A DNA stretch of 28,790 nt from a virus (Duplodnaviria > Caudoviricetes): positions 1 to 28,790 of the IMG/VR virus record IMGVR_UViG_3300020043_000553. One strand, given 5' to 3'. Below are positions 8,480-22,821 of the stretch, piece by piece. The notes beneath the pieces are model-generated. The model did no database searches, was not told the origin of the DNA, and saw nothing but the letters and a program-made list of their open reading frames with translations. Every line of letters starts with the position of its first letter. The first letter of the stretch is position 1. The position numbers and the translations under genes are program-made.

Positions 8480-9454
8480 TTAACCTTTAAAGTTTTGTTG
8501 ACGTGCTTCAATTGCGTAACGTTTGATCATCTTGCTGCGCTTTTCTGGGTCATCCCAAAAACCCGCTTCCTTCATCGCAGACACTTGCTCCCGTGTCAGG
8601 GTGAAGGTGTTGCGGTTTGAGCCGCCAGATGAAAACTCACGTCCTGAGTCGCCCACAATGTTCCTTCTCGGTTTACCAGAGCTATCACTTCTCTCGGTAT
8701 CTTGATTGTAACGATGCGGCAGGTAATTGCGCAAGCGTTTGTCAAGCTCTGTGAAGTACCCCGGATCAGAGGGGTCAAATCCTTCGTTTGTCAAAGCCTC
8801 GTCCAGCTTTTTGGCAATCTGGCTGTCCACATCGCCTAAGTCGGCGTTGAACCAAGAATTGCGCTCCATCCAAGTGTTGACGTTCCGCGCAACTCGTGGA
8901 TCTGGAGGGATTCCACCCTCGTTCTGGGGGCGAACCGCCTGCTTTTTGAAGCCTTGGAGCTGCTCAATCTTGCGGCGGGTCTCGTACCACATGTCCTGAG
9001 CTTTGGTCAAAGCCTGACCATCCCGCGCAGTAGTCGCCTCGGCCAGCTTCATCTTGGCGTACTGAAGGCGCAACTCTTGGTCTTCAATTGCCTTGTCAAG
9101 CTGGGCCAGATCGGAAGCGTGGTGCTTCTTCTCCACGACCATGAGTCGCTCCATCAACTCTTGGTTCTTGCGCTCCAGCATTTGAAGTTTTACTTCCTTC
9201 TCGGCGCTGGACCGCTTGGCAAGCTCTCGCTTGGCACGACGCTTTTCACGACGTGCTCTTTGGTATTCAGTTTCATCAGGAGGGGCTACCTCGTCGCCGC
9301 TTGCGTCAACCTCGCCGCCTTCGGCATGGGTGTCGTCATCGTCGTCATGCTCGTCGCCCTGAATGTGACCGGGCAACTCAATGACAGCGGAGCCGTCCTG
9401 ACTTTCGTTGACGACAATCTTCTCGTCGTCTTTGTTTTTTGTATCTGTGCTCAT
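8480..9454 (-). CDS. Putative capsid scaffolding protein, 324 aa
   Basis: Acidic N-terminus, long coiled coil, NSWF motif, C-terminal LTREQVSAMK. Lies between portal and MCP. Confidence 0.7.
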   Translation of the reverse strand: MSTDTKNKDDEKIVVNESQDGSAVIELPGHIQGDEHDDDDDTHAEGGEVDASGDEVAPPDETEYQRARREKRRAKRELAKRSSAEKEVKLQMLERKNQELMERLMVVEKKHHASDLAQLDKAIEDQELRLQYAKMKLAEATTARDGQALTKAQDMWYETRRKIEQLQGFKKQAVRPQNEGGIPPDPRVARNVNTWMERNSWFNADLGDVDSQIAKKLDEALTNEGFDPSDPGYFTELDKRLRNYLPHRYNQDTERSDSSGKPRRNIVGDSGREFSSGGSNRNTFTLTREQVSAMKEAGFWDDPEKRSKMIKRYAIEARQQNFKG

Positions 9455-9885
9455 AGATAGGCCTTCATTGCTAGGGGATCACCAACAACCTTTGCAATGG
9501 CTTCATGGTCATTCAAGATCATGAACAATGCAGGGTCTTCCAAATCATCCTCACCGGGGACTTTTACTTCCCAACGGTCACCGCCCCACTTGGGGACTCG
9601 GATGTAGTCACCAGCAACGCACCATGAGCCTTCAGGCCAGCTCACCATGGTGTCGCGGTGTTTGAAAGCGAGGGGTCCAACTTCAATGACTTTCGCCACC
9701 ATGTTGTTCCACTTCTCGGTTTCCTTGGTCTCTTCGATCAAGATAATCCCGGCACTTGTTGCCTTCTTTTTGGTTCGGCGCAGTTGCACCAAAATTCGTC
9801 CACCAAGAGGTTTCGCACCGGGTTCTACGCTCGGGAATGCCCAAGCCAACTCAGCTTCGCCAGAAGCTTCCAATGTGTTACTCAT
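9451..9885 (-). CDS. groES: GroES-like co-chaperonin
   Basis: PLGGRILVQ...TSAGIIL...AKVIEVGP...GDY...ILNDHEAIAKV matches the Cpn10 signature. Confidence 0.85.
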   Translation of the reverse strand: MSNTLEASGEAELAWAFPSVEPGAKPLGGRILVQLRRTKKKATSAGIILIEETKETEKWNNMVAKVIEVGPLAFKHRDTMVSWPEGSWCVAGDYIRVPKWGGDRWEVKVPGEDDLEDPALFMILNDHEAIAKVVGDPLAMKAYL

Positions 9886-13113: not shown

Positions 13114-16100
13114 TCATTGCTCTTCTGCCGCCATTGCATTGATGTTGTAGCCAAGTGCAGCAAGTGCAGCGGCTGGTGTCATGCCCTTGCGAATCATTGC
13201 GACCGCTTTGGGCCAGTCGGCCTCGCTGAAGAATCGGCGTGATTCTTGGATGTCCTTGCGCGTGCCGCCCATCTTGGCGTCGCGCAAGGCCTTTTCACGA
13301 ATCTGATTCCTAATCCATTCGGATTCGCTTAGGTTTTCCAACACCGACTGCGGCAATTCGGATGCGTGCCTGAGTAGGTCTGCCGTTGCTTCGCCACTGA
13401 ACGGCGCGGTGGGCAACGGGCCTTCAGGGCTGCGTTTGCCGATGCCGGGCTGGTAACCCATGGTGCTCAGGCTTCGCTCCTGCTTTGCGCCCGGGAACAC
13501 GTTCTCAATGGCCGGGCCAGCACGCTTCATAAGATCTTTGATGCCAGCAGAACTGGTCTCTGCGTTGTACGGGAACACCAGCGCACCACGGTTGGTTGAC
13601 GTGACGCCATACCCGCTGGCTGCGTCTTCCAAGCCTTGCAGCTTGTTGACATTCGCCTTGGTAGGTGGGCCAAAGGGCAGTTTTTCGCGCAGTTCTTTTG
13701 CTTCCTTCTTTGCCGCACCGCTGGCTTCACTCAAAGCGCTGTTGATCTCCCCGAGCTGTTTTGCGGTTGGCAGAACGCCTGCGGTTGGGTCGGCCAATGG
13801 ATCTGAGCTGAGTCCTCGGGTGTCCAACAGCATAGAGTTCTTGCCCTGAACGGCGTTCATAGTGTTGGGCAGGTTGTAAGCGCCAGCCTCTTGCGCATCC
13901 ATGAATGGGCGGAAGTGCTCGATGAAGTCCATGGTGGCGCGGGAGTCTGGAGCCATCAAGCCGCCACCGCCCGTAGGAAAGTCCATCAGGGGTCGGGCAA
14001 TCGTCATGGGGTTGTTCTCGACGCCGCCAAGGCTGTTTACATACAGGCCCTCGGCCTCACGCGATGGGAGCTGACGATACCCGGCTGCTCCGTACAAGAT
14101 GTCGCGGTTGCCTGCACCCACCTCGGGGAACTCGTTGAGTGCCGCTTCGGGTGATGGCAGATCCCATCGCCCGGTCTGGCCGTATGCCAGCTTCTCTTCG
14201 GGCGTCATATCCAAAGCTTGTGGCACATGGTTAAGACCAGCGCCGGGGATCGCCTCATGTGTGGCCGACGCTGTGTGCTTGTACATGTAGTCCCGGGCGG
14301 TGTTGTTGGCATCTACCAAAGATTGTTTGATACCCTCCAGCTCATCGCCAGCATAGCGCCCCCCGCCTTTGCCACGGCCATATTGGTCCTGCGCTTTACC
14401 GTAGACCCACGGCACTTCCTGAATTTGCGGACCAGCCCAGTCGGTGCGTCCGCCAGTTCCTGCCGCATTGGCGCGGTCTACTTGCAGCGCGGTCTCGGCG
14501 TCCATGAAAGGGTGCATGGTGTCAGACACGCCAGCCTTCCACGGGTTACCCTCTGGGTCGGTGTAGCCCATGCCTTGTGCGCGACGGAAGTCATTCACGC
14601 CAAACAAGCCAGCGTTGGGAACTCGAGGGTCGTTCTTCTCGGCATACTCGCCAATCTTGAATCCCATACTGGCCGGGCGGTTCTCAGCCACAGCCTCATC
14701 CAAATTTTCCATGCCAGCGCCACGGTAGGCCATCTTTGGGTCGCCAGCGACGCGACTGTTCAGGTGCTTGAGTGCAAAGGTCAGCTCTGACTCTGGGCTT
14801 ACGCCAGCGGAGTAAACGCCATGTTGCTCAAGCGTTCGGGGCAACTGGTAAGGCTCAACGCTTTCGGCAATACCCTGTTTGGCGCGGTCGTACCATGTGC
14901 CAAGGCGCTGAGGGTCTGCAAGACGAACGGCGTCAACCGAGTCTATGAAATCTTGATCAATTTCGCTGCGCATGGTGTTGAGACCTCGCTTGCCCTTCAC
15001 TGTGCGAGGTGCTCCGATAAACCCTTTGCCAGCAGGCTTGAGGTGCTTGCCTGCGCGTGCGGCTCTGAGCACCGCCTCGTCGCCCTGCTCTTCAGCCATC
15101 TTGCGATAGACGTCAGGCGGCACGGCCACGCGCTTACCCGTTGACTTGGTTGGCTTGGCCGACTCCTCGGGACTCCTGCCTGCGCTTTCCTTGGCGGCTT
15201 TTTCGACCTTCTTCTGGCGCTCGGCCTCCTGCTGTTGCTTCTGGCCGAATTTATCAATCACGGCCTGCTCTTCAGGGGTGCGAACAATAATTGGGTCAAC
15301 GCCTTTGGGAGCAAACGCATCTTTCAAAGCTTTGATGGCCTTTGCCCCTGCGCCAATAGCCCTCTTGGAGGGGGAGCCTCCACTCTGCATCCGTACTGCG
15401 CCACCCCTTGCCAACTCAAGCATCATGACGTCGGGATTGTTGGAGAAGTGGACGGAGCCACCTTTGGCTTTGTTCAAGTCTGGATCGTTCATGTCATAAG
15501 TTCCACGGTTGCCAATATCGCTTTTAACGGCATTGGGGTTGTAGGACACCACCTCGGACAGTTCGCCGTCACGGTACTGCATCAGGCCATCATAGCCTGC
15601 GGCCTGCGCACGTTGCTGCACCTGCTTGCCGATGTAGCCCTTCTGCTCATAGGCACGCTCGACCATCTTGCTGGCGCTGTTTTCGTCCATGCCCAGCTTG
15701 ACCAGCGCCTCAATCATTGGGTCGCCCTTGCCTTCAAGGATCAGCGGGTTGCGCAGCCGAGCGGTGACGGGCAGCATATTGCCGCCTTCTTGGCCTTTGC
15801 GCAGGGTCCCGCTTGCTCGGTCGGCCATGAACTGGTCAGCCATCCGTTTGGCGTAGGGGTCGCTTGCCATTACGGCAAGGGCCTCGTCGTTGGGGATGCC
15901 GCTGTAGCCGCTTGCGTGGGCCGAGTTGGGGGTCAGGTATACACCCGAGCCAAGTGCGCCATCCTTGCTAGGCTTGATGCGACGGATGGCCTCTTGGCCC
16001 TTGCCGCCCTCGGTGGCCGTCGTGCCGTGGTACAGGCGCATTGGTGTCTTGCTGCCCTCAAGGAACTTGGCCTTGTTGGCCTCGCGCTCGGCAGCAGGCA

Positions 16101-18432
16101 ATACGTCCTGCGTGCCCTTGATGGCTTGGGATGCCGCCTTGATCCCTCTCTTGACCAGCCCACCGCCAGCCAACTCCAGAGCCATGACGTCAGGGTTGTC
16201 GGAGAAATGGACACGGCCACCACGGGCCATGCCTTCTTCGGGTGGTATGTCCAGCCTGCCTCTGCCTTCTTTGAAGCCTTCAACCCAATTCCTTAAAGCC
16301 TCATCCTCTGGAACGCCTGCGTCAATATGGCGCTGCCTTGCAGTTTCCCAGTCGGTATCCATAACACCCATGCGGCCATACTTCTTAGAAGCCTCAGTAA
16401 GCTCTGGCTCGGTGAAGTATTTACCACTGACATTTACCAGCCCAGTGTTCTGCAAATCACCCACGTCAGACCACTTGCCGCTCTTCACAAAGTCCTGCAC
16501 ATATGGCAGGTAGTCTTCCTTCGGTGCGGCGTTGCCCTTACCTTTGATCTGAGTTATTACCTGCGGTAGGGAGGACGCATTTTGTTTCAGCCAATCGCGC
16601 ATCAAATCTTCGCGGATTTCCTGAAACTTTTGATCTCCGTAATAAGACATGCTTTCGTCTGGATTCCATATTTTTGCATCATCAACGGCGCGTATTTTGT
16701 CATATGCAACATCAGTAAGTTCGTCTCGAATGTCTTCCGGCAAATCGTAAAATCTTTGTGGTTTCTGCCGCCCGACCTCAACCGTTGTGTGCGGCTGACC
16801 TTTTGAATCAACCAGCGAGTACACCTTAGCTTTTCCGCTCTTGATGGCCTCCCAGCCGCCATGGCCGTAACCAAGGGAGCCAGCGCCACCAGACCCCTCA
16901 ACCCAGTCAGGGTGGCCCTTGGGTGGCTCGTAGCCACGCACTGAATGACCCATAGCCTCGGACTCGGAAGCAAACGAACCGGGCTTGTTCAACTCAACCC
17001 AGCGGTAGCCCTCGGGGTAATCTTTGTAAACAGGCAAGCCTTCACGGGCTGTTGCCTTAGCCTCAGCCATCTTCTTTGCAAGCTCTTGGTCGTACTCGTA
17101 AGTTCGGCGCACTGCCTGCTCCATGCTGACTTTGCTCAGTTGCTCGGGTCGGATGCGGCCAGAGGTGACGTCTTCTCGCAACACGTCCATGATGTGGTCG
17201 AAGCCAAGGTCACCAGAGAATGGTGAGTACACCGAGGTGTTCGGGTCAACCTTCGCAATCCACGGGTTCTCTTTGTTCATCTTCAAAAAGGATTCCGTCA
17301 TTGGCGAATGGAGCGCCAAGAATTCGGAATTGGCTTGCAGAAAGTCGGTATCACCAACCATGGCGGCTTTCTGGTCAAACGGCAAGCCCTTAACAAGGTT
17401 GGTTGCATCGTTCTCGCTCAAGCCTTTTGAGACAATGTGTTCAAAGACTTTGCTGTCCAGCGCATCTCGCGCACTTGTCATCCGTTCTTTGGCCGCTTCC
17501 AACCTTGCGGCCTGCTCGGGTGCGGCTTGAATATCGCCAGCATTGTAGGGCGCTATGGACTCGTCCGATGCACGCTCCCAAGCCTTAGCCAACGGCGACT
17601 GGCCCAGCCCTTCCTCGGGGAAACCAGCCGCCTTACGCTGGTCCATCAGAGTCCTGTCAGGATATATGCCCTCGTAGTCCGCAAGATTTTGCTTGTGGGT
17701 GATGCCCTCCTCCGCCAGACGACGGACTGGATCTTCAGGCGTTCCCATCTCTTTCTTGATGTAGTTGCCAAGGTTGCGGTCAGCCCAATTGTTCAGGGCG
17801 TCACTTGTTGCCAATCTGCCGGAAGCCGTAAGTTGCTCAACTTGCTCAGGAGTGTAATTGCCAAGATTCTCTGATGAAACCAAACGCCTCAAAGGTTTCA
17901 AATCTCGCTCAACGCTACCCGCAAGCCAGTTGCCGCCCTTCACCTTGATGACGCCAGCCTCGGGGTTCAGGGTGCGTGGAGCAGACAGGTTACGGGCAGC
18001 GGTCTTGAGCGCACTGGGCAGCGCCTTGGCTCCACGGATGACGGAGCCGACGTTTGCAGAGCCACCAGCAATCGTGCCGATGTCAGAGGCGAACCGTCCA
18101 GCCGGGGTGTCAGTGCCGAACGGCAGGCGCTTGAGGATGTCTGCCGAGCCGTAGGGAACTTTGTACAGCTCATTGTCAGTCACCGCCGAGTACACGTCGC
18201 CCGGAAGGTTCAGGAAGTCGGCAGGCATCCCAAAGAAGCCAGCGGCCACACCACGGGACAGATCAACAGGGAAGCTCTTTGCCGCCTCACGGTCTTGCCT
18301 GTCCTCACGGCGCTTGCCAATCATGGGGTAAATACCGAAGGCAGCGCCACCAGTGGGTGACTTTTTGGAATTCTGGAGGTCGTTCTTGACTTGTTCAAGC
18401 GTCAAGGGCTTGTTAGCGCGAGGGTTGGGCAT
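13114..18432 (-). CDS. Large polyvalent protein (PcfJ-like + ADP-ribosyltransferase + HhH-glycosylase-like domains), probably virion-packaged
   Basis: 1772 aa. PcfJ-like ESEAMGHSVRGY...VYSLVD..G.PHTTVEV...ITQIKGKGN (~16490-17060). ART LYHGT...GSGVYLT...A.GY...NP...GYDG...EVVSY.P..VKS..GN.GTYD (~15480-16050). WY...S.GVSP...K...ND...W...QIQEVPW (~14400-14900). Confidence 0.8.
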   Translation of the reverse strand: MPNPRANKPLTLEQVKNDLQNSKKSPTGGAAFGIYPMIGKRREDRQDREAAKSFPVDLSRGVAAGFFGMPADFLNLPGDVYSAVTDNELYKVPYGSADILKRLPFGTDTPAGRFASDIGTIAGGSANVGSVIRGAKALPSALKTAARNLSAPRTLNPEAGVIKVKGGNWLAGSVERDLKPLRRLVSSENLGNYTPEQVEQLTASGRLATSDALNNWADRNLGNYIKKEMGTPEDPVRRLAEEGITHKQNLADYEGIYPDRTLMDQRKAAGFPEEGLGQSPLAKAWERASDESIAPYNAGDIQAAPEQAARLEAAKERMTSARDALDSKVFEHIVSKGLSENDATNLVKGLPFDQKAAMVGDTDFLQANSEFLALHSPMTESFLKMNKENPWIAKVDPNTSVYSPFSGDLGFDHIMDVLREDVTSGRIRPEQLSKVSMEQAVRRTYEYDQELAKKMAEAKATAREGLPVYKDYPEGYRWVELNKPGSFASESEAMGHSVRGYEPPKGHPDWVEGSGGAGSLGYGHGGWEAIKSGKAKVYSLVDSKGQPHTTVEVGRQKPQRFYDLPEDIRDELTDVAYDKIRAVDDAKIWNPDESMSYYGDQKFQEIREDLMRDWLKQNASSLPQVITQIKGKGNAAPKEDYLPYVQDFVKSGKWSDVGDLQNTGLVNVSGKYFTEPELTEASKKYGRMGVMDTDWETARQRHIDAGVPEDEALRNWVEGFKEGRGRLDIPPEEGMARGGRVHFSDNPDVMALELAGGGLVKRGIKAASQAIKGTQDVLPAAEREANKAKFLEGSKTPMRLYHGTTATEGGKGQEAIRRIKPSKDGALGSGVYLTPNSAHASGYSGIPNDEALAVMASDPYAKRMADQFMADRASGTLRKGQEGGNMLPVTARLRNPLILEGKGDPMIEALVKLGMDENSASKMVERAYEQKGYIGKQVQQRAQAAGYDGLMQYRDGELSEVVSYNPNAVKSDIGNRGTYDMNDPDLNKAKGGSVHFSNNPDVMMLELARGGAVRMQSGGSPSKRAIGAGAKAIKALKDAFAPKGVDPIIVRTPEEQAVIDKFGQKQQQEAERQKKVEKAAKESAGRSPEESAKPTKSTGKRVAVPPDVYRKMAEEQGDEAVLRAARAGKHLKPAGKGFIGAPRTVKGKRGLNTMRSEIDQDFIDSVDAVRLADPQRLGTWYDRAKQGIAESVEPYQLPRTLEQHGVYSAGVSPESELTFALKHLNSRVAGDPKMAYRGAGMENLDEAVAENRPASMGFKIGEYAEKNDPRVPNAGLFGVNDFRRAQGMGYTDPEGNPWKAGVSDTMHPFMDAETALQVDRANAAGTGGRTDWAGPQIQEVPWVYGKAQDQYGRGKGGGRYAGDELEGIKQSLVDANNTARDYMYKHTASATHEAIPGAGLNHVPQALDMTPEEKLAYGQTGRWDLPSPEAALNEFPEVGAGNRDILYGAAGYRQLPSREAEGLYVNSLGGVENNPMTIARPLMDFPTGGGGLMAPDSRATMDFIEHFRPFMDAQEAGAYNLPNTMNAVQGKNSMLLDTRGLSSDPLADPTAGVLPTAKQLGEINSALSEASGAAKKEAKELREKLPFGPPTKANVNKLQGLEDAASGYGVTSTNRGALVFPYNAETSSAGIKDLMKRAGPAIENVFPGAKQERSLSTMGYQPGIGKRSPEGPLPTAPFSGEATADLLRHASELPQSVLENLSESEWIRNQIREKALRDAKMGGTRKDIQESRRFFSEADWPKAVAMIRKGMTPAAALAALGYNINAMAAEEQ
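15395..16227 (-). repeat. ~73-bp imperfect direct repeats flanking the ART domain
   Basis: Copies start at 15395 and 16154 (759 nt apart). Both encode A[RK]GG[RS]VHFS[DN]NPDVM[AM]LELA[GR]GG[LA]V. Confidence 0.85.
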
Positions 18433-18580: not shown

Positions 18581-19999
18581 TCACACGGCATACGGGTTCT
18601 CAACCTTCTTGCTGTACTCAAGGTAGTCGTCGTCGTCATAGTCATCTCGGGGCGGCGGGTCAATGTTCAGCCAGCCAGCATCCCGCAGGAAGCGCAGGGC
18701 TTGGGTGCAGGCATCCACAAAGTCGTCGTGGGTGGACTCGGGGAAGGAGCAGATCTGGCTCACAAAACCCTCAGCCCAGTCCCGGACGTAGCCCTTGTTC
18801 ACCGTGGACTCGGGTATCCACACCCGTCCAGCCATGATGATGTTGGACACGATAGACAGGCGCTGGACCTTGTCAGCCCTGCCGGGGTTGTACGCCCTGA
18901 CCGGCAGGTGGGCACGCTGTAAGTCTTGTATAAGGGAAATCCCTGATGACTTGTCTTCCACCAGAATCAGGTCAACGCGCTTCTTCTCCTTGCCGTCACC
19001 GAACACGGCATCGTACTCTTCGATCACCTTGGGGCGAAGGTCGGGGTACTGGAGCCTGTCTTGCCAGCAGTCGATCACGAGCACCGACATGGGTCCGTCC
19101 GTGGGCTTGAACACCCCGAAGGTGATGCAGGCCGTCGGGTCGTTGACCGTCTTGTCCGTGTAGGCGCAGTCGTAGCTCTGGACGATGTACTCGAACTTGG
19201 GCAGCTCTTTCTTTGGGGGCCAGAGCTTGAACCAGTCGCGCTTGATCATGCCGCCCTCTTCAGGGTCAATGATCTCGGCATAGATCTCCTGCCTGCCCAG
19301 CTTTGTACCCTCGTACTGGAGGATCTGCTTTTGAAAGCTTGGCGCAAGGTTGTTGAGGTTTGAGTAGGTCGAGGCGGTGGTCAGCGCCACGTCATCCCCC
19401 TCCCGTCCAACCAGCTCGACGATCAAGTCCTTGGGCTTGGGGGTGGTGGTGCAAAGGATGCGGGTCTTCTTGCCCAGCCGCACGCCGAACATGATCTGGT
19501 CCCACGCCTCTTGCAGATACTCCCATGCGGCCAACTCGTCGCACCATGCCCCGTGGAACTGTGGACCCCGGAACCGCTCAGGCTCGGATGCGGGTATACC
19601 CTTAATCAGGGAGCCGTTGATCAGGCGTAGCTCGTGGGCGGTCTTGTTGTAGTCGGCCACCAGAATGGGCGGGATGACAGCCAGTAGGCCTGAGTCACCC
19701 TCAAAGCAGGTTGCCCTTACGTCGGCTGAGGTGGGGGCGGCAACGAGCCATCGAGTGCCGGGTTGCTCCCATGCCCACCATCCGATCTGCTCGGCGGCTG
19801 TACGGGTCTTTCCGGCCCCGCGACCAGCCAGCAAGAGCCAGACCGTCCACCAGTCGCCTGCTGGGAGGATCTGGTGCTTGTGCGCGGCTGTGAGCCACTT
19901 TGCCCTCCAGTCGAAGGCGGCTCGGAACTCAGGAGGCAGCAGGGCATAGTTTCGCCTGACCTCATCATCCTGTAAGACATCTGTAAGCTCAACTGACAT
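18581..19999 (-). CDS. terL: Terminase large subunit
   Basis: Walker A AGRGAGKT, Walker B AWCDE, coupling motif TTTP, RNase H-like nuclease motifs QSYD, VEDK and HDDFVDA. Confidence 0.95.
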   Translation of the reverse strand: MSVELTDVLQDDEVRRNYALLPPEFRAAFDWRAKWLTAAHKHQILPAGDWWTVWLLLAGRGAGKTRTAAEQIGWWAWEQPGTRWLVAAPTSADVRATCFEGDSGLLAVIPPILVADYNKTAHELRLINGSLIKGIPASEPERFRGPQFHGAWCDELAAWEYLQEAWDQIMFGVRLGKKTRILCTTTPKPKDLIVELVGREGDDVALTTASTYSNLNNLAPSFQKQILQYEGTKLGRQEIYAEIIDPEEGGMIKRDWFKLWPPKKELPKFEYIVQSYDCAYTDKTVNDPTACITFGVFKPTDGPMSVLVIDCWQDRLQYPDLRPKVIEEYDAVFGDGKEKKRVDLILVEDKSSGISLIQDLQRAHLPVRAYNPGRADKVQRLSIVSNIIMAGRVWIPESTVNKGYVRDWAEGFVSQICSFPESTHDDFVDACTQALRFLRDAGWLNIDPPPRDDYDDDDYLEYSKKVENPYAV

Positions 20000-20666
20000 T
20001 GGACTCTGCTTGGCGCTTGAGTTCCACCGCCTTCAGGATGGTGTCGAATATGCCCAGATCGACTTTAGTCTCCAGCGGGTTCTCGGGGTCGCCAGCCACC
20101 TGCATCCGGTCGCCGTACTTCTTGGGGTTGAACTTCGCCAGCAGCTTCAGGCGGGTCTCGATCTGGAGCTTCCTGTGCCCGAGCATGTCCTCCTCGACCA
20201 CGGTCATGGAGTCCTCGTCATCGTCCGATCCGCTATTGAAGGTCTTCTTGGTCCCCAGCTTGGGAGTGTCGGCAATGATCAGGCATTCCTCGGCCATGGC
20301 GTCATATCCAATTTCACGCGCCCGTGCGATGGCTGAAGAAAGACCGACGCCCTTCTCTCCCAAAGCATCGTCAGCGTACATCCAGTTGTAGACGGTTCGC
20401 CATATCGGCATCCCCTCCATCCTGCATATCTCCCTTAGGGGTACTCCGTCACTCAGTAGCTCACAGATCTTTGTGGCTACGTCTGGGTTGTAGGTGGAGG
20501 GTCGTCCTGTTTTCTTCTTCTCTTCTTTTGCGGAGAGGTGTTCGGGTTTACCCTTAGTAGCCTGTTCCTGAAGGATTTGAGCGATAGAAGGCATCGGGGG
20601 TGTGTCTACCCCTTTTTTTGCGGATTCGGGGGCTTGTGCGCCCGATTTGGTCTGTTTGCGTGGCAT
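19989..20666 (-). CDS. terS: Terminase small subunit (Sf6 gp1-like)
   Basis: GRPSTY...ICELL..G..LREICR...TVYNW HTH, ARARE, IIAD and KLQIETRLKLLAKFNPKKYGD. Overlaps the terL start. Confidence 0.88.
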   Translation of the reverse strand: MPRKQTKSGAQAPESAKKGVDTPPMPSIAQILQEQATKGKPEHLSAKEEKKKTGRPSTYNPDVATKICELLSDGVPLREICRMEGMPIWRTVYNWMYADDALGEKGVGLSSAIARAREIGYDAMAEECLIIADTPKLGTKKTFNSGSDDDEDSMTVVEEDMLGHRKLQIETRLKLLAKFNPKKYGDRMQVAGDPENPLETKVDLGIFDTILKAVELKRQAESNVS

Positions 20667-20696
20667 CCCGTACTTTCAGAGACTGTTGATGCCCGA

Positions 20697-20726
20697 AGTT
20701 TACCCTGTTGTTCAAGTTCAGGGCAA
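20697..20726 (-). promoter_or_regulatory. Possible promoter for terS
   Basis: Minus strand TTGCCC-N18-TAAACT immediately after the tRNA CCA end. Confidence 0.3.
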
Positions 20727-20729
20727 ATC

Positions 20730-20808
20730 TGGTAGCGGGAGCAGGATTCGCACCTGCGATCTCCAGCGTATGAAACTGGCAAGGACGGCTTGGCTCCTCT
20801 ATCCCGCA
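20730..20808 (-). tRNA. Atypical tRNA with CAT anticodon (initiator-Met-like)
   Basis: Full cloverleaf of 79 nt: acceptor TGCGGGA/TCCCGCT + ACCA, D stem GAGG/CCTT, anticodon arm CCAGT-TTCATAC-GCTGG, T arm GCAGG-TGCGAAT-CCTGC. Confidence 0.8.
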
Positions 20809-20815
20809 ATATGGT

Positions 20816-20894
20816 TGATGGTGGCTCACATGAAGCAGTGTGGCTCAACAAACCGAAAGGTTCACAACGGCGCTAACCCGTTGGACCACCATCA
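20816..20894 (-). ncRNA. Candidate multibranch structured RNA (element B)
   Basis: Perfect 9-bp closing stem TGATGGTGG/CCACCATCA enclosing CAACGG-GTTAGCG-CCGTTG, AACC-TTTC-GGTT and CACA-CTGCTTCA-TGTG. Strand inferred from context. Confidence 0.55.
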
Positions 20895-20980
20895 CGGCTG
20901 AGGACTGGCGGGGATCGAACCCACTGCTTTTGAGCATGAACGGCGAATCTCGCGCCGACCTTCCTCAATCCCCATGCGTG
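20893..20980 (-). ncRNA. Candidate tRNA-like RNA lacking a D arm (element A)
   Basis: GGGGATTG/CAGTCCTC closing stem, CGGCG-N7-CGCCG arm, TGCT-CAAA-AGCA arm and GTGGG-TTCGATC-CCCGC T arm. Outer CACG/CGTG stem beyond a CA/GC internal loop. Confidence 0.55.
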
Positions 20981-20983
20981 ACG

Positions 20984-21003
20984 GCCCCCGGCTCACCGGG
21001 GAC
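20984..21003 (-). other. GC-rich hairpin at 5' edge of ncRNA cluster
   Basis: GTCCCCGG-TGAG-CCGGGGGC right after the stop of the 102-aa gene, with no U-tract. Confidence 0.5.
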
Positions 21004-21009
21004 TGTCTG

Positions 21010-21318
21010 TCAGAAATTGTAGTCGTAGTAGCGAACAGGCTCGTTGGTCAGGTTGAACCTGCGGCCATGCTTGTCCTTCCAGCCCTGCTTGCCCAAACGG
21101 ATACGGACCACTGGGTTCTCGGGGTTGCTCTTGATGTTCCACTTCTGCTCTTGCTGATTAGAGCAGCGGCCTGCAAAGCCGCCAACGTGCCAGTTGGGAA
21201 CCCAGCTTGGGTCCTTCTCGGAGTCCATCTCGCGGATTTCGATGGTCTGGTTACTGATGCGCTTGACGACCTCGTAGGGGTTGACGTCAGAGTAGCCGTA
21301 GTGGTTTGCGAAGTTCAT
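21010..21318 (-). CDS. Hypothetical phage protein, 102 aa
   Basis: ATGA-coupled ORF with YSDVNPYEVV...YYDYNF. Confidence 0.75.
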   Translation of the reverse strand: MNFANHYGYSDVNPYEVVKRISNQTIEIREMDSEKDPSWVPNWHVGGFAGRCSNQQEQKWNIKSNPENPVVRIRLGKQGWKDKHGRRFNLTNEPVRYYDYNF

Positions 21319-21521
21319 GCTGTCACCTTTGAGAGTTTGAGTTGGCGCTCACGCAGCGCGTCAATTTCAGCCCACAACTTGACGTAATAAGGGTCGTCGG
21401 TGGGCATGTCTTTGCGCAGGGCCAGCGTGTCATGGCAGTCGAACAGGGCGCGACGGCATGTGTAGAAGTCGTAGCCCTTGACCTTGTTGGTGAAAACCTC
21501 GTGCCATTGACCGTAGTTCAT
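21315..21521 (-). CDS. Hypothetical protein, 68 aa
   Basis: ATGA overlaps at both ends. Confidence 0.7.
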   Translation of the reverse strand: MNYGQWHEVFTNKVKGYDFYTCRRALFDCHDTLALRKDMPTDDPYYVKLWAEIDALRERQLKLSKVTA

Positions 21522-21646
21522 TCTGCTGCCTCGCTGTCTTCTGTTGCTTCTTCTGCGGCCACTTGGGCCTCGTACTCTGCTTGGGCCTTGGCGACTAAAC
21601 GCTGGATGTCCAGCGCGACCAATCGATTGAATTCTGCTTGTGTCAT
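21518..21646 (-). CDS. Small acidic helical protein, 42 aa (not in ORF track)
   Basis: MTQAEFNRLVALDIQRLVAKAQAEYEAQVAAEEATEDSEAAE. GAGGAG RBS, ATGA overlap with the next gene. Confidence 0.65.
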   Translation of the reverse strand: MTQAEFNRLVALDIQRLVAKAQAEYEAQVAAEEATEDSEAAE

Positions 21647-21656
21647 GGTGCGCTCC

Positions 21657-21905
21657 TCAGTTGAAGTATTCAGCAATCTCAGACTCGATGCGGGACTCTT
21701 CCCGGCTGGTCAGCTTCTTCGCCAACCAAGGGGCTGGACGGCCACGGCGGTCGCACACCTCCCAGCAGCAGTCGGTGTAGCCGTAGTAGTCCATGTCGCT
21801 GGCTGCGTTGTAGCTGTACGAGCCATCAGTGCCGCTGTACTCGGTCACGCCAATGATGCAGGGGATGCCTGCAACGCGAGTCTCAATTTCTGCTATGTAG
21901 TTCAT
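21657..21905 (-). CDS. Hypothetical protein, 82 aa
   Basis: Start reassigned to MNYIAEIETRVAGIPC, directly after leader copy 1. Confidence 0.75.
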   Translation of the reverse strand: MNYIAEIETRVAGIPCIIGVTEYSGTDGSYSYNAASDMDYYGYTDCCWEVCDRRGRPAPWLAKKLTSREESRIESEIAEYFN

Positions 21906-21910
21906 GGTGT

Positions 21911-21975
21911 GTCTTTCAGTTACCCAGCTCGTTTTGCTGTAAATGTATTTGAACAGAAAATTCAAGAGTGTGCAA
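21911..21975 (-). promoter_or_regulatory. Repeated leader copy 1 (promoter-like + 17-bp palindrome + hairpin)
   Basis: Minus strand TTGCACACTC-TTGAATTTTCTGTTCAA-ATACATTTA-CAGC-AAAACGA-GCTG-GGTAACTGAAAG. Palindrome at 21949-21965. Confidence 0.75.
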
Positions 21976-21983
21976 GTAGTTGA

Positions 21984-22553
21984 TCAAATTATTTTTGGGC
22001 GCTGGATCACAGTCTGCTTGACGCCATCACGCACGCCGTGCTCTTTGACCGTAGCCGTTACATTGACGGTGTGGCCCTTGCCGGGGATGGCGTTGGAGCT
22101 GCCCTTGTAGATGATCACGTTCTGGTCTGCGTCTTCGCAGATGTTGATGTAGGTCGTACCGTACATGCCATGCAGCACAACAACGTGGACCACGGTCAGC
22201 TCAAGGGTGACCTTCTGGCCCACAGCGCCGATATGGGCACGCTTGGCGTCCAGAGCGGCCTTCTCGCTGGCCCACTCAGCCTTCTTGGCTGCACGGGCGT
22301 CAATGCCCTTGAGGATGGCCTCGCACTGCTTTGGAGTGAGCTTGCCGTAGGTATCCAAGGCTTGGGCCATGGAACCCATGAAGCCTTCTTTGTAGGACTC
22401 GTTGCCATTGTTGTCGTAGTCTCGGCCAGCGTCGGCGGCGTCGAGGATCTCGTGGGCGCGAGGAGTGTTGGCAAGCCAAGTCTTGCGTGCGTTCATGAGG
22501 ATGTTGCGCTTGCGGCCTGCTTCCCATGCTGCTTTGTGTTCGATGTTTGCCAT
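21984..22553 (-). CDS. Hypothetical protein with C-terminal OB-fold-like domain, 189 aa
   Basis: HIGAVGQKVTLELTV...G.YGTTYI...D...NVIIYK...ATVKEH....G.KQTVIQRPK beta-barrel pattern. Confidence 0.7.
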   Translation of the reverse strand: MANIEHKAAWEAGRKRNILMNARKTWLANTPRAHEILDAADAGRDYDNNGNESYKEGFMGSMAQALDTYGKLTPKQCEAILKGIDARAAKKAEWASEKAALDAKRAHIGAVGQKVTLELTVVHVVVLHGMYGTTYINICEDADQNVIIYKGSSNAIPGKGHTVNVTATVKEHGVRDGVKQTVIQRPKII

Positions 22554-22557
22554 GTCT

Positions 22558-22654
22558 GTCTTTCAGTTACCCGGCTCAGATGCCGTATGCGTATTTGAAC
22601 AGAAAATTCAACTGTGTGCAATACCCACACAATTTACTTGGCTTTTCTGTTCAA
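22558..22654 (-). promoter_or_regulatory. Repeated leader copy 2 plus an extra upstream palindrome variant
   Basis: Palindrome at 22595-22611, hairpin CGGC-ATCTGA-GCCG, and a second inverted site ttggcttttctgttcaa at 22638-22654. Confidence 0.75.
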
Positions 22655-22821
22655 TCGCACTGCTTCTCCTTCTCCCTTATTGATGGGATGCTGGGTCCTT
22701 GCTCTACCCGCTCACCCCGGAGGTATTGGAGCATCTCTAGGGTTGTCAGGCGGGGGTGGCGCTCGATCTGGGTCAGGACGTAGGCGTAGCCGTCGTTGAA
22801 GCCCTTGATGTACTCGCTCAT
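22651..22821 (-). CDS. Hypothetical protein, ~56 aa
   Basis: MSEYIKGFNDGY... An alternative GTG start at 22836 overlaps the upstream stop. Confidence 0.55.
   Translation of the reverse strand: MSEYIKGFNDGYAYVLTQIERHPRLTTLEMLQYLRGERVEQGPSIPSIREKEKQCD

Follow-up and report, generated by a model that had tools for sequence, protein, structure and literature searches.

Element A, a tRNA-sized RNA element lying 5′ of the terminase genes of a tailed phage, is best explained as one cassette of a swappable RNA array, in which a predicted cut by host RNase III would release an 82-nt tRNA-like RNA, a likely decoy for tRNA-binding or tRNA-cutting proteins of the host. We give this reading a probability of about 0.55, and the decoy role and its target are its least certain part. 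The comparative analysis showed that the stem enclosing element A, here called the socket, is conserved with a varying interior, that the cargo inside it is itself conserved and also found in other closing stems, and that the cassettes of relatives differ or are absent.

Genomic setting of the RNA cluster

The window, that is, the whole stretch of DNA analysed, covers 28.8 kb of a tailed-phage genome, and its genes are on the minus strand; all features below lie on that strand and carry window coordinates. The last small gene before the RNA cluster, phrog_19789 (21010..21318), is common to syntenic relatives and is followed by an 8-bp GC-rich hairpin (20984..21003; z -3.2), which has no U tract, is kept in syntenic relatives and stands immediately 5′ of the socket. 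The socket 5′ arm (20966..20985) consists of a lower stem strand (20985-20977), the loop bases CA (20976-20975) and an inner stem strand (20974-20966), and the 3′ arm (20888..20907) of the inner strand (20907-20899), the loop bases GC and the lower strand (20896-20888); between them lies the cargo of element A (20908..20965), a conserved family. The final bases of the 3′ arm also open the closing stem of element B, the second cassette (20812..20894, 83 nt; z -2.4), whose 10-bp closing stem begins at a predicted cut and ends in ACCA. Next come a tRNA-Met(CAT) with an encoded CCA and an unusual D arm (20730..20808), related to phi92-type phage tRNA-Met and the one tRNA that ARAGORN calls in the window, and a 9-bp hairpin (20699..20727), kept in syntenic relatives, that forms the downstream border of the cluster. 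Beyond it lie the terminase small subunit (19989..20666), the large subunit (18581-19999), and the portal and capsid genes. The map thus bears out an all-structured RNA cluster 5′ of terS, as described in an earlier note made from the sequence alone.

The array and the packaging-gene leader may share one transcript. A promoter scan of 20500-22700 found no promoter, and no terminator was found on the minus strand near the array. Eight sequencing runs share the window's words, at 4-12% of words, the four compared being contigs; a 102-nt contig covering element A belongs to a run that is probably DNA, and element A is covered by none of the runs labelled as RNA. The socket junction was found in five GTDB contigs, namely three short Burkholderiales MAG contigs, one Flavobacterium MAG contig and one chance match, a Phaeobacter genome match without the left arm of the socket having been counted as chance; from the three of five, all short MAG contigs, the phage host is likely Burkholderiales. 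Further observations in the window concern the tRNA-Met(CAT), which has a 1-72 mismatch and is exchanged for other tRNAs in relatives (a tRNA-Met stands beside 42 of 404 array loci), a 1772-aa ORF without a PHROG match between terminase and portal (13114-18432), and a GroES-like gene between the portal and capsid genes (9451-9885).

Element A carries a conserved tRNA-like cargo

The 75-nt core fold of the earlier note, with an unpaired D region, a 5-bp arm, a 4-bp arm, a T arm and no CCA, was reproduced on the minus strand at 20973-20899. The closing stem leads into the unpaired AGGAAGGU (20965-20958), a linker with GGU, followed by arm 1 (20957-20941; 5 bp with the 7-nt loop CGAGAUU), then UUCA, the 4-bp arm 2 (20936-20925) and a 5-bp T arm (20924-20908) with the loop UUCGAUC. 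The acceptor-like stem, the CA/GC internal loop into which the ends run and the further stem were also present as the note had them, but the closing stem measures 9 bp rather than 8, as U20974-A20899 pairs too; the outer stem likewise has 9 bp (20985-20977 with 20896-20888). The plus strand folds differently and more weakly.

The folding energy of element A is within chance (z -1.42 for 88 nt, with 18 of 200 shuffles equally good), and it was comparative sequence evidence, not folding energy, that confirmed the structure. Two scans and a fuzzy search collected 34 matches to the cargo family, 25 of them distinct. Among the 22 distinct homologues that were aligned, 93.3% of cells were paired and 15 of 26 pairs had changed on both sides; the T arm and arm 1 were 100% paired, and arm 2 showed two-sided change in three of its four pairs. 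Slid controls were 37-51% paired, and none of 500 column shuffles reached the observed pairing, a test inflated by kinship among the homologues, most of which were collected by patterns fixing part of the interior. A separate scan that placed no demand on the GGU linker, on the T loop or on most of the arm 1 loop gave 26 stretches that reduced to 19 distinct cores; GGU, the CGA(G/A)AUU loop and UUCGA were all kept in 18 of them, and the remaining core was a chance match. These results lend comparative support to the proposal of a novel tRNA-like RNA without a D arm, and show its T arm to be conserved. The stem beneath the T arm is 7 bp in 5/22 homologues, 9 bp in 9/22 and of other lengths in 8/22. 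Moreover, five cargo variants (L210, L220, L222, L224 and L226) sit in other closing stems, outside sockets and in unrelated contexts, and these unsocketed copies are located between genes.

Of the checks suggested in the earlier note, ARAGORN and an Rfam search gave no tRNA, tmRNA, YrlA or tRNA-Sec call on element A. ARAGORN at default settings did not call element A. Rfam returned nothing at gathering score on the window, where up to E 10 the sole overlap with element A was an unrelated family at E 1.2, and across the window and 72 related loci it returned no family for the socket or element A, only tRNAs and, at a distance from sockets, a handful of unrelated phage motifs; blastn of element A against 50,697 phage records gave three short chance matches. 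A covariance model of the cargo found only weak matches of 25-37 bits in 151 Burkholderiales genomes, four of the six inspected being tRNA-Trp, and one true member in 100 further loci. It is plausible that the cargo descended from a tRNA 3′ half. The invariant GGU may pair with the T loop, like the D-loop G18-G19 of tRNA, and taken together the two point to a tRNA elbow that has no anticodon arm, and so to a decoy for proteins recognising the shape of tRNA. Since the first loop has neither U33 nor purine 37, element A would make poor bait for an anticodon nuclease. A separate tRNA-like gene missed by ARAGORN was noted on the minus strand of L501 (1501-1598), in a 12-tRNA cluster of a bacterial genome contig.

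The socket is a standard stem with many interiors

The phage search proposed in the earlier note, with comparison of interiors, was decisive: its pattern matched in about 260 IMG/VR stretches, and 137 pattern matches held 109 different interiors of 27-69 nt. The socket 3′ junction alone was found in about 730 IMG/VR stretches. In total, 512 socket units in 404 loci, counts in which loci overlap between scans and a few doubtful units let in by the socket finder are retained, carried 324 distinct interiors, which form 164 clusters, along with 238 different downstream modules. Interiors and downstream modules together form 248 blastn clusters, of which 147 are singletons (Chao1 ~480) and seven occur in both slots. 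The arrays follow a common grammar, in which socket, interior and socket are succeeded by a second closing stem starting with the last bases of the socket, and often by another socket or a tRNA. The ends that the earlier note had likened to tmRNA, together with the outer stem, turned out to be no part of the mimic but a generic socket, which encloses 324 distinct interiors and fits an RNase III site. A T arm was present in 26/324 interiors (7/164 clusters) and in 18/238 downstream modules; as 298/324 interiors are without one, the system as a whole cannot have tRNA mimicry as its role. The mean folding z of the interiors was only -0.76.

Across 260 sockets the stem is maintained through GC/AU/GU swaps. 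With the near-invariant U-G (229/260) left out, G-U pairs (67) far outnumbered A-C (10), which argues that the folded strand is the transcribed strand. Among 13 distinct syntenic segments reaching from the phrog_19789-type gene to terS, the window, L057, L059, L060, L062 and L214 differ in their cassette sets within the same borders, and L079, L004, L005 and L081 hold no cassettes at this site; arrays are also absent here in the closest relatives by TerL. One TerL cluster lay within 10 kb of the array in 45 of 81 loci, on the same strand in 45/45 and downstream in 41. No shared partner gene besides terminase was found across the 81 loci, and no defence or partner gene tracked with the array in the loci and contigs examined. 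Long contigs carry one or two sockets (24 of 28 with a match). Cassettes would most simply be swapped by recombination between the short shared arms, no reverse transcriptase and few integrases having been found in 28 contigs. In a GenBank phage record, L490 (MW202484.1, 41595-41730), a full socket comes right after an unannotated tRNA.

A full-text literature search, mainly of openly accessible papers, found no account of this cassette system. A motif search in part of the supplements of PMC10690425 found nothing there, and the socket or its cargos may still be among the 10,006 candidates of that work. The processing stem is of a known kind; the interchangeable repertoire and the tRNA-like cargo appear undescribed.

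The socket fits an RNase III site in one predicted register

Sockets were scored with the matrix of 85 in vivo E. coli RNase III sites in Table S4 of PMC6212723 (strict threshold -25.5), our implementation giving -22.7 for a site listed there at -23.92. The window socket scored -23.0 at cuts 20976/20894, and 13 other registers scored -31 to -44, on an E. coli matrix applied to a phage whose host is likely Burkholderiales; only 3 of 20000 pair-order permutations reached -23.0. The same register scored best in 321/348 sockets, again on the E. coli matrix and in sockets that are interrelated and were collected by their arms. The threshold of -25.5 was passed by 248/347 sockets, versus 41/347 when the best of 14 registers was taken on the opposite strand. 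The socket was the top RNase III site on the window minus strand (cut pairs 26-129 nt apart), where three others also exceeded -25.5. A hairpin at 22600-22650, which overlaps a terminator-like site, scored -24.3 on this matrix.

The geometry of the socket, 9 bp, a 2x2 loop and 9 bp, corresponds to about two helical turns around the predicted cut, and the loop and inner stem occupy exactly 11 inner positions. The optimal distal box, as placed in PMC1540722, falls at the U-G and U-A of the socket, U-G being found at position J in 229/260 sockets and U-A at K in 243/260. Of the two pairs between the cuts, one was kept in 260/260 sockets and the other in 259/260, a constancy to which the search anchors contribute. 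The loop pairs C-C and A-G are rare in the matrix; for this reason, and because the matrix is that of E. coli and the sockets are related and were collected by arms, the predicted cutting could be single-sided or absent. After the predicted cut, 3′ tails read GCCG in 269/340 and GUCG in 61/340 sockets, and a next stem of at least 8 bp begins at the predicted cut in 192/243 modules, the bases after this stem being ACCU 73, ACUU 35, ACUA 18 and ACCA 14 times, the last as in the window. The socket scores as a site for RNase III of the E. coli type in a single register, at which cutting is predicted.

By this register, which follows the dicF cuts described below, the putative cuts fall between 20977 and 20976 in the 5′ arm and between 20895 and 20894 in the 3′ arm. 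A double cut would free element A as an 82-nt RNA (20895..20976) in which a 9-bp stem stacks on the T arm and four 3′ nucleotides, GCCG, form a tail. The second cut would place the 5′ end of element B right where its own closing stem starts, and the strand set free would then close element B.

An enteric version of the socket in lambda and a look-alike stem at dicF

The commonest downstream module accounts for 42/562 sequences, explains the top-ranked of 308 matching cultured-phage records and follows both the window-type and the enteric socket. Following it led to this second socket version, in 469 phage records and 1438/5426 E. coli genomes, many of these matches covering the junction or module only. 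Lambda carries the enteric socket at J02459 44787-44862, directly 3′ of tR′, where the short late RNA terminates; with other interiors it is also present in HK629, IME10, IME11, Magnus and a P1-like phage. The lambda late-leader hairpin resembles the window socket in its geometry, in a shared strand that closes the next module, in its variable interiors and in the commonest next module, whereas its middle pairs differ, its loop is 1x1 rather than 2x2 and its hosts are enteric. Seven of 13 inner pair types are identical between the two, including the innermost four. We infer common descent of the window-type and lambda sockets from the shared inner pairs, junction and next module, and convergence on RNase III rules could explain part of the likeness. 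RNase III processing of lambda late RNA was reportedly described by Daniels et al. in 1988. Cuts in this RNA, reported to lie at +209/+270, would presumably coincide with the predicted register. According to PMC7547250, no function is known for lambda 6S RNA.

The stem 5′ of dicF in the Qin prophage shares with the window socket the lower stem, two G-C/C-G pairs, the mismatch, an inner stem reaching to 11 positions and U-G at J; 7/13 of its inner pair types are identical to the window's, and a module starting with GUUG follows. It differs in its interior and by one bulged base in the lower stem, an exact enteric arm was not found in Qin, and cutting has been shown there but is predicted in the window. 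The rnc-dependent 5′ ends given in PMC6212723 are at NC_000913.3 1649182 and 1649251. Mapped on K-12, the dicF ends lie to either side of the two pairs that separate the mismatch from the lower stem, as in the predicted window register. Cutting at the Qin stem frees, on its 3′ side, the precursor of DicF, a functional sRNA of the Hfq type, unlike the tRNA-like cargo of element A.

Element B and the downstream modules

The cargo of element B belongs to a family of 55 distinct homologues, found in both slots, with two hairpins separated by a freely variable middle. The hairpin loops covary as a kissing pair, the loop-loop pair being A-U in 49/55, G-C in 6/55 and a mismatch in none.

The commonest downstream module occurs in proteobacterial phages both uncultured and cultured; its ends, which bear complementary loops, do not vary, whereas an insert of its own does (L059, L062, L487, L488, L491, L492 and L494-L497; L499 1155-1285). 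A look-alike of this module lies between dicF and dicB and is flanked by published RNase III cuts on both sides. The downstream modules of L124, L138, L175, L195 and L060 fold almost completely as tRNAs and carry 14-42 additional bases within or close to the anticodon arm. Just 5′ of the enteric socket in L492 (1723-1881), L495 (693-895) and L496 (704-905) there is a tmRNA-like segment with a short tag-like frame and weak Rfam matches below the gathering score.

Comparison with known tRNA-like RNAs

Element A resembles tRNA (RF00005) in a 5-bp T arm with a UUCGA loop stacked on the closing stem, in a GGU like that of the D loop and in a short, class II-like arm. A canonical cloverleaf was rejected: the T arm with UUCGA is present, but there is no D stem, no anticodon loop (U33, purine 37) and no CCA. 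Compared with tRNA, and with tRNA-Sec and allo-tRNA (PMC5389517), element A lacks a D stem, an anticodon-type loop and CCA, varies in stem length and has a T stem of 5 bp versus 4 or 3. The 8+5 geometry recalling tRNA-Sec did not survive the alignment, in which the 5-bp T stem joins a stem of 7-10 bp or more, with no fixed 8/5, 8/4 or 9/3 branch and no Rfam match.

The tRNA-like domain of tmRNA shares with element A a stemless D region, a G-rich 5′ end and a T arm adjoining the closing stem; element A differs in lacking a conserved G3-U70, CCA, a tag frame and pseudoknots, and in having ends that belong to the socket. The absence of a tag ORF, as the earlier note had it, was upheld, and identity with tmRNA was rejected, there being no CCA, tag frame or Rfam match and permuted tmRNA scoring over the cut-off in 0/28 contigs. 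The suggestion of a Y-RNA-like scaffold was likewise abandoned, as YrlA had no Rfam match and TROVE (Ro60) was found in 0/28 socket- or cargo-bearing phage contigs. Minimal tRNA-like RNAs cut from longer transcripts include mascRNA/menRNA and the T4 species 1/2 RNAs. Stems of 7 bp, which with the T stem would give a mascRNA-like 12-bp acceptor and T minihelix (7+5), occur in 5/22 homologues; the window copy, at 9+5 pairs, exceeds the 12-bp top half of tRNA. Element A also differs from these RNAs in that its predicted releasing enzyme is RNase III and its module is interchangeable with more than 100 unrelated ones.

Alternative explanations

The cargo might instead be a second processing signal, a tRNA-like top half that guides RNase P and 3′ trimming for the leader, as in mascRNA/MALAT1, with no role after release. 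The 7-bp stem of 5/22 homologues, a length class absent by a simple signature in the 324 other sockets (29 unclassified), would suit such a guide, as would the invariant T loop, the unsocketed copies between genes and the tRNA folds of some downstream modules. However, the socket already gives a strong predicted cut, 9/22 copies are 9+5, and arm 1 and its loop are almost invariant, beyond what an RNase P guide needs, and we consider this reading rather unlikely. It is clearly unlikely that only the RNase III stems matter, for packaging-operon mRNA processing or tRNA release, and that the interiors are tolerated passengers: their extreme diversity (147/248 clusters singletons), their mean z of -0.76 and the absence of arrays in some close relatives would be expected of passengers, yet element A and other cargos are conserved across unrelated phages with compensatory changes, the loop pair of element B included, the cargo persists outside sockets, and the Qin stem frees the DicF precursor.

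We think it very unlikely that element A is a stand-alone mimic of one special RNA, whether the tmRNA domain (as SmpB/AlaRS bait), tRNA-Sec or a Y RNA. Its stemless D region with GG, its ends like those of Burkholderiales tmRNA and the G-U third pair of the 9-bp stem in the window recall such RNAs, but that G-U is found in only 24/260 sockets, and the variable stem length and the searches for CCA, tag frame, Rfam families, permuted tmRNA and TROVE reported above argue against it. The inverted-repeat brackets and the clear turnover of cassettes at one site could also reflect hairpins of single-stranded DNA that serve in the site-specific exchange of cassettes, by an attC-like or reverse-transcriptase-driven route, with the RNA secondary. 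An integron or reverse-transcriptase array was rejected on finding tyrosine integrase (PF00589) in 3/28 and reverse transcriptase (PF00078) in 0/28 contigs, and the terminase coding strand (45/45), the one-register RNase III fit and the RNA tertiary motifs in the interiors further make this highly improbable. Least probable of all is a decaying remnant of an ordinary tRNA: the 3′ half is like that of class I tRNAs, the weak covariance matches were mostly tRNA-Trp (4/6 inspected), and ARAGORN forces a cloverleaf on 4/24 homologue loci, but the forced cloverleaf has a broken anticodon stem and an 8-nt loop and conflicts with the covarying arms, and the conservation is too tight for decay, which covariation largely refutes.

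Implications

The reading of element A as a released decoy cassette may extend further. It is possible, and we put it forward tentatively as the less probable claim, that proteobacterial tailed phages up to lambda share a plug-and-play RNA system, in which RNase III sockets release several hundred folded RNAs, each acting on its own host protein or defence as a decoy or sponge, and reshuffled like accessory genes; the cargos would then comprise tRNA elbows, kissing-loop and pseudoknot folds, with element A as the tRNA-elbow module. The odd tRNA look-alike thereby becomes one member of a large uncatalogued phage RNA repertoire, whose RNAs have predictable ends, so that each can be made and assayed. 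The socket also gives a testable reading for the long-unexplained late-leader hairpin of lambda. If the cargos are indeed counter-defence decoys, the arrays would be an RNA counterpart to the hypervariable anti-defence protein islands of phages.
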